A DNA stretch of 64,000 nucleotides from an uncultured Spirochaetota bacterium (GTDB lineage: Bacteria; Spirochaetota; Brevinematia; Brevinematales; JAOACQ01). Below the pieces are notes generated by a model. The model did no database searches. It was not told the origin of the DNA and saw only the letters and a program-made list of their open reading frames with translations. The translations under genes were made by a program, and so were the position numbers. The DNA is taken from positions 512,001-576,000 of the forward strand of contig CAVYGN010000002.1 in NCBI GenBank assembly GCA_963768055.1, written 5' to 3'. Positions 1 through 41,803 of this stretch are shown here, one piece after another. Position 1 is the stretch's first letter, and every line of letters starts with the position of its first letter.

Positions 1-870
1 CTTAAAAACAGCAAGGGGGTGATAACCCATTATATCGGTTTGAAAGAGGACATCACATATAAAAAGCTGGCCGAAGAAACACTGCAGAAAACGCTGACCG
101 AATTCGCAGAACTTAACAAGAATCTTGACAATAAGATAAGAGAAGAGGTGGAAAAAAACAGGGAAATGGATCAAATGCTTATCCAGCAGTCAAGGCTTGC
201 CGCAATGGGGGAAATGATCGGAAATATAGCCCATCAATGGAGACAGCCTATTAACGCCCTTGGTATAATAATACAAAATATAGAACAAACCTTCGATTAC
301 AAAAAGCTTACAAAAAAATACCTTGAAGATACCGTTTTCAAGGCTATGTCAATAATTACATACATGTCCAGAACCATTGACGATTTCAGAAATTTCTTTA
401 GACCCGACAAGGAAATGGAAGATTTCAGCATCAGCAACGCTATAAGAAAAACAATTTCTTTTATTGAATCAAGTTTTAAGGAACATAACATTGTGATAAG
501 CTTTACACCCGAAAAGGATATCATCAGGAAGGGGTTTCCGAATGAATACTGCCAGGCTGTTATGAATCTGCTCAGTAATGTTAAAGATGCTGTTCTTGAA
601 AGAAATATCATGCAGTCTTCTGTAGTGATTACACTGCAGGAAAAATACGGCAGGTCAGTCCTTACCATCCAGGATGACGCGGGCGGTATTGCGGACAATA
701 TCCTTGATAGAATATTCGACCCTTATTTCACCACTAAAGAATTCGGCACCGGCATAGGGCTTTATATGTCGAAGGTGATCATAGAAAAAAATATGGGCGG
801 AAAACTTACAGCCAGGAATACCGGGAAAGCTCCCGGAAAAATCGGCGCTGTTTTTCAGATAGAGTTATAA
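1..870 (+). CDS. PAS-domain sensor histidine kinase, 5'-truncated by window edge
   Basis: Frame open from base 1; PAC-like THYIGLKEDIT, H-box EMIGNIAHQWRQP, N/G/F boxes (NLLSN, DDAGGI, FDPYFTTK, GTGIGL). Confidence 0.9.
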   Translation, partial: LKNSKGVITHYIGLKEDITYKKLAEETLQKTLTEFAELNKNLDNKIREEVEKNREMDQMLIQQSRLAAMGEMIGNIAHQWRQPINALGIIIQNIEQTFDYKKLTKKYLEDTVFKAMSIITYMSRTIDDFRNFFRPDKEMEDFSISNAIRKTISFIESSFKEHNIVISFTPEKDIIRKGFPNEYCQAVMNLLSNVKDAVLERNIMQSSVVITLQEKYGRSVLTIQDDAGGIADNILDRIFDPYFTTKEFGTGIGLYMSKVIIEKNMGGKLTARNTGKAPGKIGAVFQIEL

Positions 871-949
871 TTTTACCTTTATTTTTAATGAAAATGAGTG
901 TAATATATAATAAGTTCATTTATTTAAAATCCATAGAGGAGGATTATCA

Positions 950-1759
950 ATGTATAGATTATTATCTCTCTGCCTTATCGGCTTTTTATTTGCAATGCCC
1001 GGGAGTATTTTCCCGGATACCAATAAGACTTATTCCGTAAGCGTGACCGTAGGCATTGTTAAATATTCACAAAACAACGGTTCGAACTGGATGAAAGTAT
1101 TTCCCGAACTGGAACTTATTGAAAAATCCCTGGTTAAGACCGGGATCAATTCATATTGCGATATATTTATGCCGGAACGTGGAGTATTTCGTGTTATGGA
1201 CAATACTACGATCCAGATAAAAGAACTGAAGAAACAGGTCGAGCAGATAAAGATCCGCCAGGGAAAAGCTATCTTTAACATTGCAAAAAAGCTGGGACCT
1301 GACGAAAGTTTTACTGTTGAAACATCTGTGGCCAATGCTGCCGTAAGAGGAACTAAGTTTGAAATCGATTCCGATGATAATAACCTTGCCGTGTCCGTGA
1401 CAACCGGAAATGTCAGAATCAAAAGAAATATCGCCATTCCCAAAGAATACCAGGATGATGAAGAGGTCCAGAATCTTCTTACTGTAGATGCGCAATCAAA
1501 CCAGACCATTACTTTAACCAAGGATGAAAACCTGGAGCTTGAACAGTCGATCGATAGGGTCAAGGGCAACAAGGCAGAGGTTTTGTCGGCGCTGAAAAAT
1601 TCTCACGATGCTACACTGAAAAAGTTAAAGATAATGAAGAAAAATGTCAATCGTGTATTGGATGAGCTTGAAAAATATGGAGATTCTTCTTCCGGCGATC
1701 AAAACCAGAGCGACGATACTGAAAATGCCATAGAAAAAATCAAAAATAAAGATAAATAA
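950..1759 (+). CDS. Exported FecR-domain protein
   Basis: Signal peptide; FecR motif FTVETSVANAAVRGTKF; GAGGAGG RBS. Confidence 0.75.
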   Translation: MYRLLSLCLIGFLFAMPGSIFPDTNKTYSVSVTVGIVKYSQNNGSNWMKVFPELELIEKSLVKTGINSYCDIFMPERGVFRVMDNTTIQIKELKKQVEQIKIRQGKAIFNIAKKLGPDESFTVETSVANAAVRGTKFEIDSDDNNLAVSVTTGNVRIKRNIAIPKEYQDDEEVQNLLTVDAQSNQTITLTKDENLELEQSIDRVKGNKAEVLSALKNSHDATLKKLKIMKKNVNRVLDELEKYGDSSSGDQNQSDDTENAIEKIKNKDK

Positions 1760-1785
1760 TCGTTAAGGCGCGAATAGCTCGAAAG

Positions 1786-1818
1786 AAACCCCGCCCTTTT
1801 AAAGGAGCGGGGTTTTTT
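1786..1818. terminator. Bidirectional intrinsic terminator between convergent FecR gene and eno
   Basis: AAACCCCGC-CCTTTTAAAGGA-GCGGGGTTT stem with T-tract and upstream A-rich tract. Confidence 0.85.
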
Positions 1819-1834
1819 ATTTCTTACGATCAAG

Positions 1835-3151
<1,317 letters not shown>

Positions 3152-3258
3152 TTATTATTTTAATCATATTTGTCACAGTATCGATATGACAATAACTATT
3201 TATGATAGGCCTTAAAAAAATAAAAGTCAAAAAGCAGGAGTAAAGTAAAATTGAAACC

Positions 3259-3289
3259 GGGGGGACGTGTCTTCGCGGACCGTCCCCCC
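3259..3289. repeat. GC-rich REP-like hairpin
   Basis: GGGGGGACG...CGTCCCCCC inverted repeat between divergent eno and lhr. Confidence 0.5.
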
Positions 3290-3361
3290 AAAAATTTGTT
3301 TTTTTATTCCCTTCTGACTATTCTATAAATAATTGAGGTATAAATAATCGAGGTATCACCA

Positions 3362-6300
3362 ATGGACCCGCTATCCCTGTTCCATCCCTCCGTTAAAAAG
3401 TGGTTCGAAGAAAAGATCGGTTCCCCGACCGAGATCCAGCAAAAGGCATGGCCTTTGATAGCCGGAGGCAGCCATGTCCTGATGAGCGCGCCTACAGGCA
3501 CAGGCAAAACCCTTGCTGCTTTTCTCTGGGCGATCAATCAGCTTATTGCCGGAAAATGGGAAAAAGGAAAGACTTCCATCCTCTATATATCGCCCATGAA
3601 GGCGTTAAACAACGATATCAGGAAAAATCTTCTCATACCGGTCGAACAGATCGGGGCCGGGATAAATGTTTTTGTAAGAAGCGGAGACACTCCCTCAGGC
3701 GAAAGGCGCAGAATGCTCATAAGGCCGCCTGAAATTCTCATTACGACCCCTGAAAGCCTCAATATACTTTTAACATCAAAAAACAGTTTTTACCTTTTCG
3801 AGAATTTAAAGACGGTAATTCTCGATGAAATACATGCAATTGCCGGCAGCAAAAGGGGAACCCTATTAATAAGTTCGGTGGAACGCCTTACAAGGATTTC
3901 CGGAGAATTTCAAAGGATCGTGCTCTCGGCTACGATCCGGCCTATAGAAGTTATTGCCGGTTGGGCCGGCGGAAAAAGGGATATGCGGATCGTCGAAGCC
4001 TCAAAGTCAAAAAAATACGAGATAAATATAAAATTCCCGGCGGACGCCGGAAAGAAGATGATTGACAACTCCATATGGCCTCCCCTGATCGAAGAATTCA
4101 GGAAACTTATAAAAAGCCGCAATTCCACGCTCCTTTTCACTAACAGCAGGCGATTGACTGAAAAAACCTCACGGCTTATTAACGAGAATGAACCTGAAAT
4201 CATAGCCTATTCGCACCATGGTTCCATTTCTAAAGAATTAAGGCTCGAAGTGGAGGACAAACTTAAACAGGGGAAATTGAAGGCGATAGTCGCCACAAGC
4301 TCTCTTGAATTGGGGATCGATATCGGCGAACTTGACCAGGTCATACTTATCCAGACCCCCCGCTCCGTCTCTTCCGCCCTTCAAAGGATAGGCAGGGCGG
4401 GGCATAGAGTAGGCCTTGTAAGCAGGGGTTGCCTCTTTCCTACCCATGGCAGGGACTTTATCGATGCGGCGGTGCTCGCAAGGGCGGTGGAGGATTATGA
4501 GATAGAACCGGTAAAACCGGTTGAAAACCCCCTTGACCTTTTATCTCAGATTGTGTTATCGATGAGCGCAGTAGAGGATTGGAAAGTTGACGATTTATTC
4601 GGTTTTATAAAAACTATATATCCTTACAGGAACCTTTCTCATAAGCAGTTTATCCTTGTTTTAAACATGCTCTCGGGAAGGTACTCAGGCAGCCGGATAA
4701 AAGAGCTTAAACCTCGTATATCTATCGATAAATTAAACAATACTATTAAAGCTATGGACGGAGCCGCTTCCCTTGTCTATCTTTCAGGGGGTACGATACC
4801 GGACAGGGGTTATTATGACCTGCGAATGCAGGATACGCATTCGAAAATAGGCGAACTTGACGAGGAATTTGTCTGGGAAAGAAAAATAGGAGATACTTTC
4901 TCTCTGGGCCCTGCCGTCTGGAGGATACGTAATATTACAAATACCGATGTCCTTGTAAACCCTGTAGATAGCGCTCCAAACATTATTCCCTTCTGGAAAG
5001 CTGAAGATTCCGACCGCGGATTCTTTTTCTTTGAAAAAGTCGGCTTGTTCCTTGAAAAAGCCACGGAAATGCTTGGCGAAAATAATTCGTTCAGAAATTT
5101 ATTAATGTCGGAATACTCGATGGATGAAGCATCCTCGGAAGAACTTGCTCTCTTTCTGGAATCTCAGATAAAATTTACAAATTCCCCTCTCCCGGGCCGC
5201 CATCTTGTTCTGGCCGAACATGTTAAGAACCCGGTCCCCGGCGATAACAGCGAGATAGTCCTGCATACTCTCTGGGGAGGGAGGATAAACCGCCCCTTTT
5301 CATTTATTCTTTCCGCCGCCTGGCAGGATAAATTCGGTTATCCGATCGAAGTCATGGCTAACGATGACAGTATCCTTATAATGCTCCCTCATAGTTTTAA
5401 AATTGACGATGTATTGGAGCTTCTTTATTCAGCCGACCTTGAAAGTCTGCTTAAAAAGAGCCTGGAAAATACAGGATATTTCGGGGCCCATTTCCGTGAG
5501 AATGCCGGCAGGGCCTTGCTCCTGCCGAAAAGAGGCTTCAACAGCAGGGTCCCTTTGTGGCTGAACCGCCTGAGATCTAAAAAACTGCTTGAAGCGGTCC
5601 ATTCTTATCAGGACTTCCCTGTAACGATCGAAACCTGGAGGGAATGCCTGCTGGATGAATTCGATCTTGAAAATCTTAAAAAACTCATCGACGAGATCCA
5701 TACCGGCGATATAAAAATCAGCGAAATATACACTCCGTCCCCGTCCCCGTTTTGCGGAAATATCATCTGGCGTCAGAAGAATAAATATGTCTATGAAGAC
5801 GATACGCCATCACCTTCAGGTGTTTCCAGCCTTTCAGACGACCTCTTCCGTGAAATTCTCGGCGAAGCAGGCCTGCGGCCCCTTATACCCCGGGAGACGG
5901 TTTCCCTGATGAATCAAAAATTAAAAAGAACCTATCCCGGATATTCGCCGCAAAATTACGGGGACCTTCTCGAATGGGTTAAAGAAAGGCTGCTGATTAA
6001 TTGTAATGAATGGGATGAATTGGCGAATTCTATCGATCCCGGGATCAGGACTGTATTTCCTGACCGGTATGAAAGCCGGATTTTATCATTAAAGCCTCCG
6101 TTGTCTAAATACCGCCTTGTCTGCGCCGCTGAAAATCTTCCACTTATTTCTTCATTCTACAATCTTCAACCGGACGAACTCGATATATGTTTAATGCCTG
6201 AAGGCAGGCCGGATAGCGCTTTCATAAGAAATATCTTTAAAACGCTATCGGGAGAGGTTCCGGAATCTGTCCTGCAGGACCGGGGCAGGTTTTTCCTTCA

Positions 6301-7717
6301 ATGGATTTCATATTACCCGGCTGTCGATACCGCGCTTATACCCGGTATGTTAGGGCTTTCAAAAACAGATATCGCTGAAATCCTGGGCGATTTATCCGAA
6401 TCGGGAGAAATTATTATCGATGAATTGATCGAAGGGTCGCAAGAGATCTATGCGGCCGAGAGGACTAACCTCGAGACCCTTCTAAGGATCTTGAGAAAAG
6501 AAAGAAGGCCGGCTTTCAAGGCTCTTCCCCTGGAAACGCTGCAGCTTTTTCTTGCAAGCCACCAGGGTCTGACGAACAGGGACCAGTCGATCGAGGGTTT
6601 GAAAAAGGACCTTGAAAGATTGTTTGGTTATCCGCTGGACGCTCAGGCCTGGGAGGAATCGATATTCCCGGCAAGGCTCTCGCCGTATTATCCGGCATGG
6701 CTGGACAGCCTTCTTCAAAACACGGGATTATTATGGTTCGGCTGCGGTAAAAAGAAGCTGTCTTTCGCTTTCCCGGAAGATATCGGGATATTTACCGGCC
6801 CAGGGGAATCCGGCGAAGCGGAAGAGCTGCCTGACAGGGAAAGGCATTACGATTTTTTTGAGCTAACTTCGATCATGAATACGACTACAGCGAAAGCGGC
6901 CGGAAAGATATGGAGCATGGTATGGAAGGGGCTGATCTCCAACGAATCATTCGAGGCGGTCAGAAAGGGGATCCGGAACAAATTCACCGCTGAAGTTGTT
7001 CTGGAGCAGGGCAATAAAGGTCAAAGGTCCCTCCGGAGCAGATGGGAATCCGGCAGGCCTCTGGCCGGCAAGTGGTACGCCCTTCCAAAATCCACCGATG
7101 CCGACGACCTGATCACTGCCGCTGAAAATCAGAAAAACATGGCCAGGGTCCTATTCGACAGGTACGGCATCGTTTTCAGGGAAATATTAATGAATGAAAT
7201 GCCCTTACTCCGATGGGCAAGCCTCTTGAAGACATTCCGCCTTATGGAACTTTCGGGAGAGATCCTGTCGGGTTATTTTTTTAAAGGGATACCGGGAGCC
7301 CAATTCGCCTCGCATGAGGCTTACCGCGAGCTTCTCAGGAAACTTCCTTATGACCATGTTTACTGGCTTTCAGCTATCGATCCGGCATCCCTTTGCGGAA
7401 CCGGGCTTGAAGGGATAAGCGCTTATTATCCCGCCAGGATACATGCAAATTTTATGGTCTTTCACGGAGATAAGCTGGTAATGACAATCGGAAGGTCGGG
7501 AAAATACCTTGAATTCAAAGTCGGGCCCGGTCATCCAAATATAGAAAGATACCTTGAGGTTATTAAAGTGCTGCTGACCAGGGAATTCAAACCCTATTCT
7601 TCCGTAAGAGTGGAAAAAATAAACGGAATTGCTGCGGATGAAAGCCCTTACCGCGACCCACTTATCAAGTTCGGCTTCAAATCAAGCTATAAAGGCATTG
7701 AGATCTGGAGGTATTAG
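3362..7717 (+). CDS. lhr: Lhr-family ATP-dependent DEAH helicase
   Basis: APTGTGKT, DEIH, SAT, HHGS, LELGIDIG, QRIGRAGH, GTIPDRG, FRENAGRALLLP; long C-terminal winged-helix region. Confidence 0.93.
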   Translation: MDPLSLFHPSVKKWFEEKIGSPTEIQQKAWPLIAGGSHVLMSAPTGTGKTLAAFLWAINQLIAGKWEKGKTSILYISPMKALNNDIRKNLLIPVEQIGAGINVFVRSGDTPSGERRRMLIRPPEILITTPESLNILLTSKNSFYLFENLKTVILDEIHAIAGSKRGTLLISSVERLTRISGEFQRIVLSATIRPIEVIAGWAGGKRDMRIVEASKSKKYEINIKFPADAGKKMIDNSIWPPLIEEFRKLIKSRNSTLLFTNSRRLTEKTSRLINENEPEIIAYSHHGSISKELRLEVEDKLKQGKLKAIVATSSLELGIDIGELDQVILIQTPRSVSSALQRIGRAGHRVGLVSRGCLFPTHGRDFIDAAVLARAVEDYEIEPVKPVENPLDLLSQIVLSMSAVEDWKVDDLFGFIKTIYPYRNLSHKQFILVLNMLSGRYSGSRIKELKPRISIDKLNNTIKAMDGAASLVYLSGGTIPDRGYYDLRMQDTHSKIGELDEEFVWERKIGDTFSLGPAVWRIRNITNTDVLVNPVDSAPNIIPFWKAEDSDRGFFFFEKVGLFLEKATEMLGENNSFRNLLMSEYSMDEASSEELALFLESQIKFTNSPLPGRHLVLAEHVKNPVPGDNSEIVLHTLWGGRINRPFSFILSAAWQDKFGYPIEVMANDDSILIMLPHSFKIDDVLELLYSADLESLLKKSLENTGYFGAHFRENAGRALLLPKRGFNSRVPLWLNRLRSKKLLEAVHSYQDFPVTIETWRECLLDEFDLENLKKLIDEIHTGDIKISEIYTPSPSPFCGNIIWRQKNKYVYEDDTPSPSGVSSLSDDLFREILGEAGLRPLIPRETVSLMNQKLKRTYPGYSPQNYGDLLEWVKERLLINCNEWDELANSIDPGIRTVFPDRYESRILSLKPPLSKYRLVCAAENLPLISSFYNLQPDELDICLMPEGRPDSAFIRNIFKTLSGEVPESVLQDRGRFFLQWISYYPAVDTALIPGMLGLSKTDIAEILGDLSESGEIIIDELIEGSQEIYAAERTNLETLLRILRKERRPAFKALPLETLQLFLASHQGLTNRDQSIEGLKKDLERLFGYPLDAQAWEESIFPARLSPYYPAWLDSLLQNTGLLWFGCGKKKLSFAFPEDIGIFTGPGESGEAEELPDRERHYDFFELTSIMNTTTAKAAGKIWSMVWKGLISNESFEAVRKGIRNKFTAEVVLEQGNKGQRSLRSRWESGRPLAGKWYALPKSTDADDLITAAENQKNMARVLFDRYGIVFREILMNEMPLLRWASLLKTFRLMELSGEILSGYFFKGIPGAQFASHEAYRELLRKLPYDHVYWLSAIDPASLCGTGLEGISAYYPARIHANFMVFHGDKLVMTIGRSGKYLEFKVGPGHPNIERYLEVIKVLLTREFKPYSSVRVEKINGIAADESPYRDPLIKFGFKSSYKGIEIWRY

Positions 7718-8229
7718 CCCCCCATCGGGGCTTTCTTCCTGCTGTCGATATAAACAAGCAGGACTATGATAATAAACCCGGCGGTCACATACATATCGGC
7801 AAAATTCAAAATCCCGGTCCTGAAAACCGGACCGATCCCCATGTTCAGGAAATCGATAACCCGGCGGTTGTTAAAGAATCTGTCGATAACTACATTATTC
7901 ATCCCCCCCGTTAAGATCAGGGAGAACGCGGTTGCCTGGCCGGCGGTAATCTTTTTCGATAAGATTATATAAATAAAAAGTATTATAAGAAAAGCTGCAG
8001 GCAACAATCCCAGGAGGATAAACCCGGCAACCGGAGGGAGGTTCTCTCCCATGGAGAGGAAGGCGCCCGAATTTTCAGAGTACTGTATCCTCAAAGTGTC
8101 GAACAGGTATGAATAAGTTTGTCCTCCCGAAAGCTTTTCTTTTGCGATGGCCTTTGTAACGCGGTCCAGCGCGGTACCAGCCGCGAGAATGCTGAACAGG
8201 ATTATCAGTCTTGGGATTAATTTCATCAC
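7714..8229 (-). CDS. lspA: Lipoprotein signal peptidase II
   Basis: ENSGAFLS, IDR, VIDF, NFAD motifs; 4 TM segments. Confidence 0.88.
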   Translation of the reverse strand: MMKLIPRLIILFSILAAGTALDRVTKAIAKEKLSGGQTYSYLFDTLRIQYSENSGAFLSMGENLPPVAGFILLGLLPAAFLIILFIYIILSKKITAGQATAFSLILTGGMNNVVIDRFFNNRRVIDFLNMGIGPVFRTGILNFADMYVTAGFIIIVLLVYIDSRKKAPMGG

Positions 8230-25527: not shown

Positions 25528-26391
25528 ATGGACATTAAAGAAAGAAAAAAAAGAAATGTCTTGTTCAACATTTTTAAAGACAGGGTATTTTTTATAATTA
25601 TCATCGCCCTGTCTGTTATCACATTAATTCCTCTTATTTTAATCCTGTATTACATTACGGTAAACGGGGTATCGTTCCTCAGCATCGACTTATTGACAAA
25701 ACTTCCGAAAGCCACGGGGGAGGCGGGCGGAGGGATTGCCAACGCAATAATAGGTTCGGTTATAATCGTTTTTTTTTCAGCATTGATAGCGATTCCGATC
25801 GGGATACTTTCGGGGATATATCTTTCCGAGCATACTGAAAGCCGGCTGGGGCAATTCGCGCGGGTAGCCGTGGACGTTCTCCAGGGAGTCCCTTCGATCA
25901 TACTCGGCATCATAGCCTATGTATGGTTAGTAATACCGATGGGCGGTTTTTCAGCTATTTCGGGAAGCATAGCCCTGTCAATGATGATGCTTCCCCTGAT
26001 AATAAAAAACACGGAGGAAACATTGAGGCTCATACCCTATTCCGTTAAAGAAGCCGCATATTCTCTAGGGGTCCCATATTATAAAGTCGTCCTGAAGGTT
26101 GTTCTGCCGGCCGGGCTATCGGGAATTCTTACCGGCGTCCTCATTGGAATAGCAAGGATAACCGGGGAGACCGCACCATTGCTATTTACAGCATTCGGAA
26201 ACCCGTTTACCGAGTTAAATCCCTTAAAACCTATGGAAACCATACCCCATATAATTTTCACATACGCTACGAGCCCTTACACGGATTGGCAGAATATAGC
26301 CTGGGGCGCTTCTTTCATACTCGTGTCTTTCGTTTTAATTTTGAATTTAATAGCAAAGGTGGTGGCAAGCAAATGGAAGGTAAAATTCTAA
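25528..26391 (+). CDS. pstA: Phosphate ABC transporter permease
   Basis: GGGIANAIIG, GVPSI, ARITGETAPL. Confidence 0.94.
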   Translation: MDIKERKKRNVLFNIFKDRVFFIIIIALSVITLIPLILILYYITVNGVSFLSIDLLTKLPKATGEAGGGIANAIIGSVIIVFFSALIAIPIGILSGIYLSEHTESRLGQFARVAVDVLQGVPSIILGIIAYVWLVIPMGGFSAISGSIALSMMMLPLIIKNTEETLRLIPYSVKEAAYSLGVPYYKVVLKVVLPAGLSGILTGVLIGIARITGETAPLLFTAFGNPFTELNPLKPMETIPHIIFTYATSPYTDWQNIAWGASFILVSFVLILNLIAKVVASKWKVKF

Positions 26392-27143
26392 AACCGATCC
26401 TTGATGTACAAGACCTCAGCGTTTATTACGGTGATCTGAAGGCATTGAACAATATAGTTATGAATTTTTATGAAAACACCGTCCATGCTATAATGGGTCC
26501 CTCCGGATGCGGAAAATCCACCCTTATAAGGTGTTTTAACAGGCTCCATGAACTTACTCCCGAGGCTAGGGTGGAAGGCAGAATATTATTGAACGGCGAA
26601 GACCTTCTTCAAATCGATCCAATCCTTGTCAGGAGGCGGATAGGGATGGTTTTCCAGCGTCCGAACCCTTTCCCTACAATGACAATTTATGATAATGTCA
26701 TTGCGGGTTATAAACTGAACAGTATTCATTTACATAAATCAGATGCCGATAAAATAGTCGAGGAATCCCTTACCAAGAGTTCACTCTGGATGGAGGTCAA
26801 AGACAAGCTGAATAAAAGGGGAACCTTCCTTTCGGGCGGCCAGCAGCAGAGGCTTTGTATCGCAAGGGCGCTCGCTATGAAACCGGACGTACTTCTACTG
26901 GACGAACCTACTTCCGCCCTTGACCCGAAAGCGACCTCTCATATAGAAGAATTGATTGTAGAATTGAAAAATACCGTCGCTATTATTCTTGTAACTCATA
27001 ATATTGCGCAGGCAGGCCGTGTTTCCGAATATACTGCTTTTATGTATCTCGGAGATTTGATAGAATATGGAACTACGGAAAAATTATTTACAGTCCCCCG
27101 GGACAAAAGAACAGAAGAATACCTGAGTGGAAAATTCGGATAG
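26373..27143 (+). CDS. pstB: Phosphate ABC transporter ATPase
   Basis: GPSGCGKST, GMVFQRPNPFP, LSGGQQQRLCIAR, DEPTSALDP, YLSGKFG. Confidence 0.96.
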   Translation: MEGKILKPILDVQDLSVYYGDLKALNNIVMNFYENTVHAIMGPSGCGKSTLIRCFNRLHELTPEARVEGRILLNGEDLLQIDPILVRRRIGMVFQRPNPFPTMTIYDNVIAGYKLNSIHLHKSDADKIVEESLTKSSLWMEVKDKLNKRGTFLSGGQQQRLCIARALAMKPDVLLLDEPTSALDPKATSHIEELIVELKNTVAIILVTHNIAQAGRVSEYTAFMYLGDLIEYGTTEKLFTVPRDKRTEEYLSGKFG

Positions 27144-35997: not shown

Positions 35998-36063
35998 GGA
36001 TCACCACAGAGGCGCAAAGATCGCAAAGAGGAACAGAACGCAAAGTGTGCGGAGGTCGCAAAA
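35998..36063 (+). repeat. Left island boundary: CGCAAAG-rich repeat
   Basis: GGATCACCACAGAGGCGCAAAGATCGCAAAG...CGCAAAG, starts immediately after MFS stop. Confidence 0.75.
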
Positions 36064-36096
36064 AATTTCAAGACTTCGAAATAAAATCCTTATCGC

Positions 36097-36125: not shown

Positions 36126-36209
36126 ATTTTAATATTTTGTTAATTTGTTTATACTAAATCACAGTCAACTATAGCAATTAGAATAGAATGAATGTAATAG
36201 GAGAAAACA

Positions 36210-37646
36210 ATGTATGAAAATTTATTTAAAGAAACAAGATTAAGAGAACCAAATAATTTGCGAGATCCAACAACAATTCATGATATATTTTTTGAAGAAA
36301 CCGAAAGTGACCGTGTTAGAATACTCTATTCAAGTCCATTCAGACATTTACAAAATAAAGCTCAGGTTTTTTCGCTTGAAGATAATCCTGACGTTCGTTC
36401 AAGGTTAACACATTCTTTAGAAGTCTAAAACATTGGAAGAAAGATTGCTTTAAAAGTGACTAACAAATTAATGGATAATAAATATTTGATTCCTTTTGTA
36501 AATATAGTAGAAAATTCATGTTTAATACATGATATTGGAAATCCTCCCTTCGGTCACTTTGGTGAAACCGCAATAAAAAAATGGTTTGAAGATAACTGGG
36601 GAAAATATGACATTCCATTGAATTCAGAGGAATTAACTTATTTTAAAAACAAAAATTTCTTAAATGATTTTCTATATTTTGATGGTAATCCTCAAGGAAT
36701 GAGAATAGTAATTCATTTACAAGAAGCATATCCAAATCATGATGATTTAGGATTTAATTTAACTTGCACACAATTATTAGCATCTCTTAAATATTTACGA
36801 TCAACAGATGAAGAATTTGAAGATAAAAAAATTTAAAAAAATATGGTTATTTTATAACCGAAAAAGAAAAAATTGATTTGGCAAGGAAAAAATTGAATTT
36901 CGGATCTGATAGGCGTTTTCCATTATCATATATAATAGAGGCTGCTGATGATATTTCTTACTGCTTGAGTGATATTGAAGATGGTATTGAAAAAGATCTT
37001 GTGAATTTTGAAGCTTTTTATAACCTTTTGTTAAAAACAGAGAATACTGAAATTTTGAAAGAGCTTAATGTTTATGAGAATCTTAATAAAAAAACTTAGT
37101 AATCCTGAGAAATTTTTTAATTTCAAAACATCTTTAGTTAAATCTTTAATAGAAAATTCAGCAAATCTATATTATCATAATCATGAAGAATTTTATAACG
37201 GCAAAAGACCGAATTTTTTTGAAGAAAGTTCTTGTGAATCAAAGATTCTTGATTTATTAAAAAAATTTTCAAGAATTAATTTATTCAGATCACCAGAAGC
37301 GGAAAATAAAGAATTAGCCGGACATAAAATTATTTCCGGAATTCTTGCTGCATATAAACCTTTACTAAGTATGAAATACAATGATTTTAAAATTTTGAAC
37401 GATGCAAAAATAAAATCAGAAGTGATTGGCAAAAAAGGATTGGATTATGAGTGGCGCCTATTTAATAAATTACCCGCAAAATATCTCTCGGCTTATGAGA
37501 AAAATGTTGATCAAAACATTAGTATGGAAGGAAAGCATGCATTAGAATTGTTTTTAAGAGCACATCTTATTGTTGATTATATAGCAGGAATGACTGACAA
37601 TAAAGCCTTAGAAATTTATCATTTACTTCAAGGAGTTGACTTTTAA
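36210..37646 (+). pseudogene. dgt: dGTP triphosphohydrolase (HD family), disrupted; about 478 aa when reconstructed
   Basis: FRHLQNKAQVF, RLTHSLEV, HDIGNPPFGHFGE, FDGNPQG, EAADDISY, DYIAGMTD spread over four ORFs; in-frame TAA 36426-36428; frameshifts at A7 runs 36825-36831 and 37088-37094. Confidence 0.92.
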
Positions 37647-37888
37647 TGGACTCTTACAATACTCATCCTATCACCTTGCTTATTGAATATATAAAAAACT
37701 TTTCTTTACAGCAAGCAGATTTTGAATTTAGTTGTTATATTGGTGGTGAGAGGAAAACAATAAAAAGAAGAATATTTAATTTAAAAGGTGTCGAGGACCG
37801 GGTAGATTCCCCAGTGGCAGGGCCATGAGATTCCCCACCTTTTCCTGAAAAATACCGTTCTTGATTTTAGAGAGAAATCATAAAACTT

Positions 37889-38635
37889 TCAAATAGTTTT
37901 CCCTTCCTTCCGGAAAGATTTTCCATCTTTGGATTTTACCAGGATTTTAATTGAGCCTGAAACAAGGCGGTCAAGCATAGCCCCTCCAATCACAGGATCA
38001 GGGAAGATTGCCAGCCAGTCCTCCGGAGGCCGGTTGCTTGTCAGAATAATGGACCTGTTTCCAAGCCTTTCATCGACAATCCGGTATAGGTATTCCGTTT
38101 CTTCATTGTCGAGTTTTTTAAATCCGAAATCGTCTATTATCAGGAGGTCTGTTTTAATACACTTTCTGAATAGAGTATTCTTAAACATAAGCTTTTCGCT
38201 TTTCAAGTCTTCAAGAAGAACCGCGGCTTTCTTGAAAAGAACTGTGTTTCCTCTTCTGCAGGCCTCATGGCCGACTGATTTTGCAATGCATGTTTTACCT
38301 ATGCCGGGAGGCCCGGCGATGACAACAAACTGTCTCATATCCATGAAACGGCAGGACGCGATTTCACGAATAAGCCTTGAAGGGATAGCGCTCTCATTGA
38401 AATTAAAATCAAACCCCTCGAAAGTGTTTTCCTGGCCGAACTTCGCTTCTCTCAGCCTCTTTTTGAGCATGTTATTATCCCTCTGGCATAATTCATCCTG
38501 AACTAACAAAGAGAAAAATTCTCCATAGTCCAGGTTTGATTCTTGAGCCTCCCTGATCCGCATAGGAAGGTTGAATAGCATCCCAGGAAGCTTTAACCTC
38601 CTTAAGTTTGCCTCAAGCTGATTCTGATGTTCCAT
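37889..38635 (-). CDS. istB: IS21 helper ATPase
   Basis: GPPGIGKT, LLIIDDFG, LTSNRP, AMLDRL. Confidence 0.95.
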   Translation of the reverse strand: MEHQNQLEANLRRLKLPGMLFNLPMRIREAQESNLDYGEFFSLLVQDELCQRDNNMLKKRLREAKFGQENTFEGFDFNFNESAIPSRLIREIASCRFMDMRQFVVIAGPPGIGKTCIAKSVGHEACRRGNTVLFKKAAVLLEDLKSEKLMFKNTLFRKCIKTDLLIIDDFGFKKLDNEETEYLYRIVDERLGNRSIILTSNRPPEDWLAIFPDPVIGGAMLDRLVSGSIKILVKSKDGKSFRKEGKTI

Positions 38636-38653
38636 ATTTCCTCCTCATTATCT

Positions 38654-40195
38654 CTATTGAAAGTAATAGCTGCCGTCCCTGGTCATTTCAGACCCTTCTT
38701 CTGAAATTTCAAACAGGGTGTCCTGTTTATCCTTTCCTTCATTTTCCATCCAGCTTTTGAATAGTTTGGGATCGGTTATTTTTGCCGATATTGCTCTTTC
38801 ACAGACTTTATTAAAGTATTCTTCTTTCGAGAATGTTTCCATTACACTTAAGAACCCCAGGGCCCTCCGGCAATTCAGATTAGCATGAACAGCAAGGATT
38901 TGAAAGATCAACTGGTATGCGGCTTCTCCGTATTTCCTCGACTGGTCTAATAAATACTTGGGGTATCCCCCGGATAGCATCTCCCTTGTATTCTCCGGAA
39001 AATCAGTCTTTTCATATGCTGCATGTCCTCTTGGTACGACAAATTCCCGGATAAGTTTGTACTGGAAGAAGATCTTCACTAAATTGCCGGTTCTCCTGAC
39101 AAAGACTTCCTCTCCACGATACCTGGGAGGCAGGGAATACCTCTTTTTCTCGAACTGGACAAATTGGTCCGGGTGTACCTTGGCCTTTTTCCATACGGGA
39201 GTCTTAAACCTTTCTTCAGGAAGCTTCTTAAGCAGGGGCTTCTCTATCGTTTCAAATACCTCTATTGGTTTCAAACCTGTTGTTCCATGGTTCCTCATCC
39301 CGTATTCATACCTGCACCATTCCAGAGCTTTGATGTTTAATTCCTTTAACGAGGCTCCGGGATTAAGGGCTTTAAGTTTTCTGAAAAGCTCTCTGGCAAC
39401 AGGGACCATTCTCTCTATCTTGGCTTTATCCTTTGGTTTCCTTACCCTGCAAGGATCAAGAAAAGTATTGTAATACTCCGCATAATCAGCATATGCCTGA
39501 TTATATTTAGGATCGTAAAGGTCCGGTGATATGATGCCGGTTTTCAGATTGTCCAGGGATATTCTTACAGGCACACCGCCGTAAAACTCCAGCATATCCA
39601 CATTGCTTTCAACGAATGATTCCTGGTTTTGTGAATAGACATATTGAACAAATGGCAGCCTTGAACTCGACATTATTCCGATAAAAGACTGCACGATCTT
39701 GTTGTGCCCCAGGTATTCCATTGTGCCGGCCCTGCCGTAGTCAAGCTGGATCTCCTGACCAGGGTTAGTTTCAATCCGGATGGTTTCCTTTAATTCTTTA
39801 GCTGTAAGGCCGCTCTTTATCGAGAATCTCTTGAAACTTGTATAGCTTATGTCCAGATTATGCCTTATACAGACAACTTCAAAGGCTGTCTTGGGTTTCA
39901 TTCCGTTTTTCGGGTCATTTATGAGCCCGTACAGCTCATCTTTATATCGTTCAAGTATGCTTGCCTTATTTTCATTTTTTGGAGGCCCTACAAAGGGGCG
40001 TTTCAGATGGAATTCTTCCCGGCTTATTGTTTCTCCCGCCTTTTCAAAGCCGTAATCGATAATTTTTTGAATCGCTAGTCGGACTGTTTTCCTATCCCTG
40101 TTTTCCTGTTCGGAAATTTCACTTATGCTTTGATCGGCTTTCCATCGTCTGTAAATGTCATAGTAATCCTGTTCGTTCATAAATCTGTACCCCAT
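38654..40195 (-). CDS. istA: IS21 transposase
   Basis: ETNPGQEIQLDYG, GGVP...DNLKT, PKDKAKIER, YSLPP. Confidence 0.95.
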   Translation of the reverse strand: MGYRFMNEQDYYDIYRRWKADQSISEISEQENRDRKTVRLAIQKIIDYGFEKAGETISREEFHLKRPFVGPPKNENKASILERYKDELYGLINDPKNGMKPKTAFEVVCIRHNLDISYTSFKRFSIKSGLTAKELKETIRIETNPGQEIQLDYGRAGTMEYLGHNKIVQSFIGIMSSSRLPFVQYVYSQNQESFVESNVDMLEFYGGVPVRISLDNLKTGIISPDLYDPKYNQAYADYAEYYNTFLDPCRVRKPKDKAKIERMVPVARELFRKLKALNPGASLKELNIKALEWCRYEYGMRNHGTTGLKPIEVFETIEKPLLKKLPEERFKTPVWKKAKVHPDQFVQFEKKRYSLPPRYRGEEVFVRRTGNLVKIFFQYKLIREFVVPRGHAAYEKTDFPENTREMLSGGYPKYLLDQSRKYGEAAYQLIFQILAVHANLNCRRALGFLSVMETFSKEEYFNKVCERAISAKITDPKLFKSWMENEGKDKQDTLFEISEEGSEMTRDGSYYFQ

Positions 40196-40794
40196 CCATT
40201 CCCCTCCGGTTTTTTCCGGAGAGTATGTTTGATTTTTTAGATTCTGAACAGGAAAAGGTGGGTGGGGAATCTCATGGCCCTATTTTGCCTTTTTACTGGG
40301 GAATCTGGGTGGCCCCGGACAAAAAGGAGAACAAATCAATATTCGTTGGCTTAAAACCATATTAAATTCGTTAGAAAAAAATGAGGAATTGGCCTTTCAT
40401 TCCTGTATATTAAAAGATAATGAATATTTATTTTTTCCTCTGATTGATTTTTGGGGGGAAGATTTTTTGAATGCAATAAAAGATCTAAAATTAAATCCGG
40501 AATTATTACATTTATATAAATCAGGTAGGTCTTATCATGGTTATTATTATAAACTTCTCAATAAAAATGATTGGGAAAAATTTTTAGGAAAACTTCTTTT
40601 ATTTAATCCTTTCGACTATAAACTTGAGCCATATGTGGATTTTAGATGGGTTGGGTATTCTTTGGAAAATGGTTATAGCGCTTTAAGGTGGAATAATAAT
40701 TCTTCAAGATATATTTCATATCCATTTTTATTTAATTTTAAAAATTTTTAACATTTTAAACTAAATAGTGAGGACATGTTTTTAAACAAACACA

Positions 40795-40861
40795 CCACTG
40801 CGGTCTTTGCATTCTTTGCGCCTTTATCCACACTGTGCACTTTGCGTCTTTGCGGTGATCC
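40795..40861 (-). repeat. Right island boundary: inverted CGCAAAG-rich repeat
   Basis: Reverse complement GGATCACCGCAAAGACGCAAAG...GCGCAAAGAATGCAAAG, 3 nt from the stop of the convergent gene. Confidence 0.75.
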
Positions 40862-40864
40862 TCG

Positions 40865-41803
40865 TCACCCCTTTTTTATCTCATCCTCAAAATAAGGGAT
40901 CGTGTTTTTCAAACCTTCTAAAAGCCGGATTTTCGGCTCCCAGCCTAGTTTTTCCCTGGCAAGGGTTATATCGGGCTTCCTCTTCATAGGGTCGTCGGAG
41001 AGCGATTTCATCCTCACTATTTTAGAGCGTGAATTGGTAAGTTCAAGGATTATTTTTGCCAGCTCGATAATCCTGAATTCCTCGGGGTTTCCAAGGTTTA
41101 CCGGACCGATGAAACCGTCATTGTTCATCATCTTTAAAAATCCGTCGATCAAATCGTCTACATAGCAGAAACTGCGGGTCTGTTCGCCGTCGCCGTAAAT
41201 AGTAAGGTCCTGATTTGTCAGCGCCCGAATAATAAAATTTGAAACCACCCTTCCGTCGTTCAAAAGCATCCTCGGCCCGTAAGTGTTGAATATCCTGACT
41301 ATCCTTATATCGATCTTATTCTGGCGATGATAATCCATGAAGAGGGACTCTGCAATCCTTTTTCCCTCGTCGTAACAGCTTCTGTAGCCGACTGGATTGA
41401 CATGCCCCCAGTAATTTTCCTTCTGCGGATGCTCAAGCGGATCGCCATAAACCTCGCTGGTCGAGGCCTGAAAAATCCTTGCGCATAGCCTCTTGGCCAG
41501 CCCGAGCATATTGTAAGCCCCCATGAAATTAGTTTTTATCGTTTTTATAGGATTTGCCTGGTAATGTACAGGCGATGCAGGGCAGGCAAGGTTAAAAATC
41601 CAGTCTACTTCCACAAGCAAAGGTTCGACTATATCGTGCCTTATAACCTCAAAATTTTTATTATCCATCAGGTGAACTATATTTCTGTTCCTCCCTGTAA
41701 AGAAGTTATCGGCGCATATAACATTATTGCCGGCCTGAAGCAGCTTTTCACATAGAAAACTGCCGAGAAATCCGGCGCCGCCAGTGACAAGAACATTCTT
41801 CAT
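40865..41803 (-). CDS. UDP-glucuronic acid decarboxylase (extended SDR)
   Basis: [46 protein letters not shown]. Confidence 0.93.

Follow-up and report, generated by a model that had tools for sequence, protein, structure and literature searches.

A broken dGTPase/primase-like gene pair in a Spirochaetota genome as a possible relic of a Clover-like defence module

We analysed a stretch of 64,000 nucleotides, hereafter the window, from an uncultured Spirochaetota bacterium (assembly GCA_963768055.1, contig CAVYGN010000002.1, positions 512,001 to 576,000). It carries a horizontally acquired, AT-rich unit of two genes, inactive now: a dGTP triphosphohydrolase (dGTPase) gene of the Escherichia coli Dgt type, followed by a small gene whose product resembles archaeo-eukaryotic primases (AEPs). 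This cassette is very probably the dead relic of a gene pair that is conserved across bacteria, and since both of its genes are broken, the copy in the window cannot function. Our best reading, to which we give a probability of about 0.5, is that the window holds a decayed dGTP-depletion module comparable to the Clover defence system, in which a primase-fold partner would regulate the dGTPase through a short nucleotide of its own making, a mechanism that we infer. For the window's own genome this is an ordinary matter, a dead import and a further casualty of an apparent burst of IS21-family insertion sequences (ISs), and the interest lies in the family.

A dGTPase gene and a primase-like gene as a unit

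An earlier note on this DNA, made from the sequence alone, had proposed that an IS21 element at 37789–40321 splits a gene of 188 codons, and the reconstruction bore this out. Removal of the element together with one copy of its AAAAGG target duplication (37646–37788 joined to 40328–40751) gave 188 codons with no internal stop. Against a hidden Markov model (HMM) of the family, built without the window's own rows, the C-terminal piece matched positions 49–187 (E = 2.7e-47) and the read-through gave a single match over positions 3–187 (E = 4e-56). The overlap of its ATG with the stop codon of the dGTPase, in the TAATG at 37644–37648, was confirmed as well. The C-terminal fragment also matched the Pfam family PF24387 (AEP-like, Archaeo-eukaryotic primase 1D-like) at E = 2.5e-27, with 95.7 bits against a cut-off of 27 and over positions 5–132 of 133; intact homologs scored 102–118 bits on the same model. 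In PADLOC and NCBIfam, this fragment had no match.

The note had also taken the upstream dGTPase for a working gene, with the IS as the only lesion, and this did not hold. The window contains no intact dGTPase reading frame, as the gene is interrupted by an in-frame TAA and two changes of frame: frame 0 runs from 36210 to about 36830, another frame from about 36818 to 37090, and the first frame resumes at 37086–37640. The pieces are colinear on the NCBIfam model NF003429 (positions 18–73, 76–215, 243–296 and 324–499), score 253.6, 86.9 and 167.6 bits in the three frame segments against a profile of AEP-linked dGTPases, and match the PADLOC dGTPase model PDLC02374 (E = 8.2e-15 to 1.1e-8). Both frameshifts lie at runs of seven A and could be assembly errors, whereas the TAA is a substitution; an alternative genetic code for the TAA at 36426 was considered and dropped, with the neighbouring genes reading normally under table 11. 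All catalytic motifs can still be read, which marks the decay as young. Elsewhere in the window's genome lie two further dGTPase-like genes of smaller size (G000:C2:716075-716353 and G000:C2:274372-275508, with open frames of 348 and 422 amino acids), presumably its own housekeeping forms.

We searched for the same arrangement in one genome per species (185,579 species), which returned 111 confirmed loci, and analysed the best 80. The gene directly upstream of the AEP-like gene, on the same strand, was a dGTPase at 75 of these 80 loci; of the other five, three lie at the end of a contig (L026, L037, L078) and two are genuinely solo (L005, L033). Upstream open reading frames (ORFs) matched NF003429 in 72 of 74 cases. 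Stop and start codons overlapped in 57 of 72 pairs, by 4 nt in 34 of them, and twelve further pairs lay within 30 nt. When neighbouring proteins of at least 90 amino acids were clustered, the AEP-like family was found at 78 loci, the dGTPase at 75 and the next commonest family at only 5, so the unit consists of exactly two genes. Its hosts include Acidobacteriota, Bacteroidota, Gemmatimonadota, Myxococcota, Thermodesulfobacteriota, Ignavibacteriota and many Pseudomonadota, and the tree of linked dGTPases crosses taxonomy, for instance by placing Burkholderia paludis with Dyella acidisoli. We conclude that the two genes form a strict pair that, judging from sequence, is translationally coupled and moves between distant bacteria as a unit.

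One ORF that joins both proteins (P0028, 549 amino acids, 10 member sequences) was not counted as a dGTPase–AEP fusion, its ends being truncated on both sides; it holds dGTPase profile positions 157–464 and AEP positions 3–145 in one frame and could represent either a locus in decay or an uncommon fusion. A blastn search with an enterobacterial AEP-like gene found no match among 5,426 complete genomes of E. coli, a nucleotide search that divergent copies could escape.

The linked dGTPases are closest to E. coli Dgt, with a best E of 1.4e-152 on NF003429 versus 5.5e-62 on NF041026, the model of the anti-phage Sp-dGTPase; intact copies matched PDLC02374 at E = 2.5e-67. The HD motif and the other catalytic residues are invariant in 63 intact linked enzymes, which suggests that intact copies are active. 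Edwardsiella, Atlantibacter and Thorsellia each carry a housekeeping Dgt (700–853 bits on NF003429) in addition to the AEP-linked copy (446–451 bits), and Phytobacter carries a housekeeping Dgt (873 bits) together with a linked copy broken into two pieces (234 and 204 bits). In a FastTree phylogeny, the four housekeeping copies formed one clade with 100% support, separate from the linked copies of the same genomes, which grouped with linked copies of Vibrio, Pseudoalteromonas and Colwellia. In this midpoint drawing the housekeeping clade joins by a long branch with weak support (69), and monophyly of the linked dGTPases is not claimed. We conclude that the linked dGTPase is an extra paralog and not the housekeeping dgt.

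The AEP-like protein had 27 homologs in a protein database search (175–227 amino acids, 38–47% identity), annotated as hypothetical or, where named, as 'primase 1D-like protein'. A profile search of 1.84 billion representative sequences gave 1,711 matches at E ≤ 1e-3 and 1,203 at 1e-10; among the best 150, nearly all were stand-alone proteins of 145–265 amino acids, with one of 349. The fold was modelled with AlphaFold2 on an intact homolog, L001 (194 amino acids, alignment of 88 rows), and not on the window's own protein (predicted local distance difference test, pLDDT, 92.0; predicted template-modelling score, pTM, 0.88). When the model was compared with 48,161 representative PDB chains, the top 18 matches were all AEPs, with Z from 10.7 to 6.4: RepB' (Z 10.7; root-mean-square deviation 3.3 over 153 residues), S-2L PrimPol (10.0), PriS (9.4), eukaryotic Pri1 (9.2–8.7), HP0184 (8.5) and LigD-Pol (8.0) were among them, and the first unrelated chain had a Z of 6.0. 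Foldseek ranked poxvirus D5/E5 primase domains best (E = 2.5e-4), followed by LigD-Pol, PriS and RepB'. The family profile itself had no match among all PDB sequences at E up to 10.

The protein is thus predicted, from the model of its homolog, to adopt an AEP fold in which the whole chain is a bare catalytic core. Both the AEP-like nature of the small protein and the conserved dgt upstream of its homologs had been anticipated in the earlier note. The motifs P-h-[IV]-D, SG[RN]S[YF]H and DxRW follow the AEP order with the expected spacing, an equivalence judged by order and spacing alone. Whether paired, solo or phage-borne, all copies compared keep D95, S128, H130, D162, R164 and R178 (L001 numbering) and have E or D at position 75. 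In the window's own protein, the near-invariant His of RW[VI]GH is a Tyr (DFRWVGY, 40653–40667).

Defence context, decay and proposed function

To place the pair in its genomic context, we ran PADLOC on two genes on each side at 37 loci (146 of 148 proteins; two flank proteins of more than 1,300 amino acids, L005:1170-5699 and L038:7487-11584, were left out). In the 22 of these genomes whose contigs permitted it, a region at a distance of 50 kb served as a control and received the same treatment. By a lenient count, 13 of the 37 pair loci had a defence match, versus 2 of the 22 control regions (a TIR protein and a methylase-like protein; one-sided Fisher p = 0.024). By a strict count the figures were 9 of 37 versus 1 of 22 (one-sided Fisher p = 0.049); a PD-T4-6 kinase (L007), a RecD-like protein (L050) and an mREase_IV (L044) entered the lenient set only. 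The proximity to defence genes that the earlier note had suspected is seen with both counts.

The adjoining systems were type I hsdS-hsdR (L031) and hsdM-hsdS (L056), type III mod-res with PD-Lambda-2 (L049), a type II methylase and endonuclease (L014), type IIG (L052), IetS (L027), PDC-M02A/B (L047), RmrT/RmrA (L055) and IetA (L046), the last being an AAA-ATPase-type match only that was kept in both counts. Complete or high-scoring systems beside the pair were mostly co-oriented with it. PADLOC matches to mad3, AriA (ABC-ATPase), E1-E2 (ThiF-like), GlgB, control-protein and helix-turn-helix models were rejected as defence evidence. An ordinary PstB of the window (26286–27140, beside phoU) matches mad3 at E = 3.2e-33, and AriA as well, so these and similar generic models were discounted.

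Both genes were intact at 64 of the 80 loci. With contig-end truncations (L011, L017, L020) and probable start-codon artefacts (L003, L051) set aside, a broken dGTPase stood beside an intact AEP-like gene at four loci (L004, L010, L032, L034) and both genes were broken at two (L029, L069), the window being a third such case. A broken AEP-like gene beside an intact dGTPase occurred at none of the 80. The direction of decay is the one expected if the dGTPase is the costly partner, a hint that does not reach significance.

The AEP-like gene was found alone in two genomes (L005, L033) and in four viral contigs, with no dGTPase in any of the six frames. In one viral contig (L120; genes at 601–1227, 1573–1950 and 6587–6943) it lies 350 bp from a Lar-like restriction-alleviation gene, with a nucleoside 2-deoxyribosyltransferase nearby, a neighbourhood that is plausibly one of counter-defence or nucleotide takeover; in another (L121) the context includes a tail sheath gene. 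A tblastn search of GenBank phages for the AEP-like gene gave no match. In a third viral contig (L119; 181 kb, array at 299–7930), the solo gene is embedded among eight paralogous genes arranged in tandem (about 190–265 amino acids), all of which match the same PHROGs of unknown function (phrog_17273, 3649 and 22899).

The Clover system offers a template for how such a pair might work. According to the accessible part of its description (Yamaguchi et al., 10.1101/2025.07.09.663793), the dGTPase CloA is activated by the rise in dTTP caused by T5-like phages; CloB, a nucleotidyltransferase (NTase) of the Pol-beta superfamily, makes 5'-triphosphothymidyl-3'5'-thymidine (pppdTpdT), which binds CloA and holds it off; and CloA without CloB is strongly toxic. 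In the pair described here, the dGTPase would likewise be the effector, costly to the cell, that depletes dGTP against phage. The primase-fold partner would perform the first priming step, linking two nucleotides, or a few, to give a short di- or oligonucleotide with a 5'-triphosphate. This product would bind the dGTPase and set its activity, most likely keeping it off in uninfected cells, and phages with a solo AEP-like gene would supply the 'off' signal as counter-defence. The first catalytic step of a primase yields a 5'-triphosphate dinucleotide, which makes an AEP a natural alternative synthase.

Several observations weigh against this reading, beginning with the context of the loci. The defence enrichment looks real; it is modest and rests partly on the removal of generic models. 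When the comparison was confined to the matched 22 genomes, the curated counts were 7 of 22 versus 2 of 22 (one-sided Fisher p = 0.066) and the uncurated ones 10 of 22 versus 6 of 22 (p = 0.17). The window's cassette, like those of many other loci, is surrounded by ordinary metabolic genes. So is the pair on plasmid pSOD02 of Pantoea sp. SOD02 (L088, 6439–8612; 927 kb), the only plasmid match, where the annotation reads 'HD domain-containing protein', 'dGTP triphosphohydrolase' and 'hypothetical protein', that is, with the dGTPase split into two ORFs. These points would suit an accessory nucleotide-pool or DNA-repair module (repriming or gap filling with local dGTP control), spread by gene transfer and found in defence islands only at times, as would the 24 of 37 sampled loci with no specific defence match within two genes and the lack of enrichment of close E. 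coli dgt homologs in defence islands, as given in the accessible part of Tal et al. (10.1101/2021.04.26.441389). We nevertheless regard such a module as unlikely: at L014, L027, L031, L047, L049, L052, L055 and L056 the pair directly adjoins, and is co-oriented with, complete restriction–modification or other systems; its distribution is patchy and rare; decay is frequent; and a phage solo copy lies beside a restriction-alleviation gene.

A further difficulty is the active site. The canonical motif I of AEPs, DxD or DxE, is absent: the family has a single Asp, with an acidic residue at +2 in 2 of 78 members, so the activity of the AEP-like enzyme is not assured, and the flanking acidic motifs that the earlier note had read as an AEP core are not the canonical ones. 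As suggested by conservation and strand layout, and not by superposition, E/D75 on a neighbouring predicted strand might be the substitute acidic residue. Judging from the conserved residues, the site is probably active and non-canonical. If the chemistry has instead been lost, the AEP-like protein could be an antitoxin-like or adaptor subunit that binds the dGTPase and restrains or localises it; the unusual motif I, the tight translational coupling, which is typical of complex-forming pairs, and the single frame of P0028 all speak for such a protein-level partner. We find this improbable: the His, Ser, Arg and acidic residues of the AEP motifs do not vary even where the gene is solo or phage-borne and there is no dGTPase to bind, which fits an enzyme better, and P0028, truncated as it is, may be decayed or mis-called.

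The remaining difficulties concern the comparison with Clover and the direction of the signal. The decay asymmetry (4 versus 0) is not significant, the dGTPase gene being 2.5 times longer; several of the 'broken' dGTPases come from metagenome bins and may reflect assembly errors; and phage solo copies amount to only four loci (three distinct) among 2.9 million contigs. The linked dGTPase appears, from its profile scores, to lie outside the CloA/Sp-dGTPase lineage, so that the allosteric sites of Clover need not exist there. The earlier note had pointed in the opposite direction, towards activation. In such a model the AEP-like protein would recognise phage single-stranded DNA (ssDNA) or replication intermediates and would then make short oligonucleotides, or pass on nucleic acid, to switch the dGTPase on and shield it from phage inhibitors. 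The conserved pairing and the defence context would serve this model too, AEPs act on ssDNA templates, and the linked enzyme belongs to the Dgt type of E. coli. In the accessible part of one study (PMC9478638), E. coli Dgt binds ssDNA tightly and its hydrolysis is stimulated, the Dgt over-producer strain optA1 restricts T7 lacking gene 1.2, and Dgt bound to nucleic acid resists the T7 inhibitor Gp1.2; a nucleic-acid product could therefore act as an activator. We consider activation unlikely: it is difficult to see why phages would carry a solo AEP-like gene whose product activates a host effector, the model would tolerate an intact dGTPase beside a broken partner yet no such locus was found, and the protein lacks any domain for DNA recognition, such as a zinc finger or helicase, its whole 190 amino acids being catalytic core.

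Collectively, the evidence makes it fairly probable that the dGTPase/AEP-like pair is a defence module, and we propose more tentatively that the AEP-like partner is an active enzyme making a regulatory nucleotide. Should it make one, we would lean towards an inhibitory rather than an activating signal, the direction favoured by the solo copies in phages, by the way the loci decay and by the precedent of Clover; activation stays conceivable in view of how Dgt responds to ssDNA. The full proposal goes further still, with an AEP recruited as an immune-signal synthase that gates a Dgt-type dGTPase, as a non-homologous replacement of CloB and the first AEP known to make a second messenger or regulator instead of serving replication or repair, and with phage solo genes as counter-defence; taken as a whole it is speculative and rather doubtful. 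If it were true, the primase fold would be added to the few folds that produce nucleotides for immunity, a function could be given to a family that comprises about 1,700 sequence clusters and has only a name, loci that current tools label as single-gene 'dGTPase' systems would be annotated correctly, and a new class of phage counter-defence gene would be suggested.

The window copy and its surroundings

The features of the cassette are listed in Table 1. The inserted element has istA and istB, terminal inverted repeats (37789–37815 and 40295–40321, with an inner perfect pair at 37819–37839 and 40261–40281) and a short target duplication, all of them features of the IS21 family. About ten copies at approximately 100% identity are present in the genome, in the window and in nine other places; seven are full length, and three span positions 1–2493, with the final 59 bases shifted by about 40 bp. 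The insertion is recent, given these near-identical copies, and the genome looks like one that has undergone a recent burst of IS21 transposition.

Without the IS, the cassette has a GC content of 26.5%, compared with 44.5% in the flanking purE/MFS and UXS genes, 41.7% in the whole window and 43.2% in the IS. The AT-richness described in the earlier note therefore stands, its figure of about 47% for the flanks being slightly high. Among 60 relatives of the window's genome, ranging from the same genus to the same phylum, none had PF24387. From the difference in GC and this absence, we conclude that the cassette is foreign to the lineage. Its neighbourhood is one of housekeeping genes, with pstB, phoU, a cation antiporter, purE and a major facilitator superfamily (MFS) gene on one side, and UXS and flagellar genes on the other. 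In a genome of the same genus (G003) the MFS gene is kept (76% identity) and a different gene comes next, and the comparison yielded no clean pre-insertion site.

A pair of GCAAAG-rich repeats flanks the AT-rich cassette in inverted orientation, with wider extents of 36000–36066 and 40790–40866. The motif CGCAAAG-N1-4-GCAAAG occurs 10 times at about seven sites in the genome, and its reversed control does not occur. The insertion point of the cassette may perhaps have been a palindromic intergenic repeat between convergent genes.

Table 1. Coordinates of the cassette features in the window
Feature	Position	Strand	Remarks
Left GCAAAG-rich repeat copy	36010..36029	.	Inverted repeat with 40804-40823; 20 nt, 90% complementary
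AGGAG motif resembling a ribosome-binding site	36199..36203	+	6 nt ahead of the dGTPase ATG; from sequence
dGTPase pseudogene, E. coli Dgt type	36210..37646	+	Colinear pieces, catalytic motifs recognisable; NF003429 and PADLOC dGTPase matches
In-frame TAA in dGTPase	36426..36428	+	At conserved LEV-x-x-GR position; substitution
dGTPase frameshift zone 1	36818..36854	+	Two A7 runs, 36825-36831 and 36835-36841
dGTPase frameshift zone 2	37068..37099	+	A7 run, 37088-37094
AEP-like gene, N-terminal part	37646..37788	+	47 codons + GG; family HMM positions 3-43, E 7e-7
Target-site duplication, copy 1 (AAAAGG)	37783..37788	.	6 bp, direct
IS21-family insertion sequence	37789..40321	-	2533 bp; terminal inverted repeats, istA + istB, target duplication
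istB (IS21 helper ATPase)	37889..38635	-	PF01695 IstB_IS21, E 5.9e-57
istA (IS21 transposase)	38654..40195	-	513-amino-acid ORF; C-terminal domain Mu-transpos_C_2, PF22483, E 2e-12
Target-site duplication, copy 2 (AAAAGG)	40322..40327	.	6 bp, direct
AEP-like gene, C-terminal part	40328..40751	+	140 codons + stop; ELAFHS, PLIDF, SGRSYH, DFRW, SALRW
Right GCAAAG-rich repeat copy	40804..40823	.	Inverted relative to 36010-36029

Comparison with known systems

In the literature that we could search, no description of the dGTPase/AEP-like pair was found, and prior work on dNTPase–NTase pairs may bear on its novelty. Nicastro et al. (2023) are said to have been the first to flag a dNTPase–NTase pair and may mention the present one. 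Shi et al. 2026 and Kazlauskas et al. 2018, when searched by term, did not yield the pair either. The accession PF24387 appeared in no paper of the searchable literature, and 'primase 1D' yielded unrelated docking papers; the window gene is thus a member of a family that has been named and is uncharacterised. The AEP-like half is not covered by any model of PADLOC v2, which gave no match for two of three intact proteins and a chance-level one for the third (E = 0.0086) and whose 'dGTPase' system calls the dGTPase half of the pair and ignores the obligatory partner. The earlier note's view that this is no characterised system accordingly agrees with PADLOC v2; it needs qualifying by Clover, a close functional precedent in which the product inhibits the dGTPase where the note had guessed activation.

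Among AEPs, the nearest relatives in fold and in the size of the whole protein are the minimal enzymes RepB' of RSF1010 (3h20/3h25), S-2L PrimPol (6zp9) and HP0184 (2atz), with Z of 10.7, 10.0 and 8.5 over 153–158 aligned residues and agreement in the order and spacing of the Asp, SxH and Asp motifs. Unlike them, the present family has one Asp in motif I, shows no match to them at the sequence level, and is tied to a dGTPase without any link to a replicon.

E. coli Dgt belongs to the same NF003429 subfamily as the linked dGTPase and, as far as the accessible part of the work on it goes, shares with the proposed module the restriction of phage by lowering dGTP and a regulation by nucleic acid. 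It differs in being a single core gene without an AEP-like neighbour, and in Enterobacterales genomes with the pair a housekeeping Dgt is present as well, as a gene of its own. The Sp-dGTPase (Tal et al.; PADLOC PDLC02374) is likewise an HD-domain dGTP triphosphohydrolase that starves phage replication, and some of its representatives lie inside type I restriction–modification operons, as do loci L031 and L056 here. In the accessible part of that study (10.1101/2021.04.26.441389), defensive dGTPases are treated as single genes; the Sp-dGTPase is a single-gene system and shares only 24% identity with E. coli Dgt, unlike the linked enzymes, which resemble Dgt.

Clover is the closest functional precedent, and the pair is not a member of it. 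As far as the accessible part of its description allows a comparison, both are two-gene operons that combine a dGTPase effector with a small enzyme of a nucleotide-polymerising superfamily, and both are located in defence islands. In Clover the effector is costly, CloA being toxic alone; for the present pair the decay pattern is a hint of the same, with the dGTPase as the gene that decays and no locus where it is intact beside a broken partner. The product of CloB, a 5'-triphosphate dinucleotide, is of the chemical class of a primase's first product. The partners are non-homologous, with an AEP fold (PF24387) here and not a Pol-beta fold with [D/E]h[D/E]...h[D/E]h. The dGTPases appear to differ too: CloA is octameric, about 33% identical to Sp-dGTPase and equipped with p3diT and dTTP pockets, whereas the linked enzyme is nearest to E. 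coli Dgt, a lineage judged by Dgt-type versus Sp-type models without CloA or CloB sequences. In Clover, as it is described there, a small nucleotide made by the partner sets the threshold, and regulated dGTP depletion is a recently recognised way to starve viruses without self-poisoning. If the pair works like Clover, this logic has arisen two times or more, each time with a synthase unrelated to the other and a dGTPase of a different lineage.

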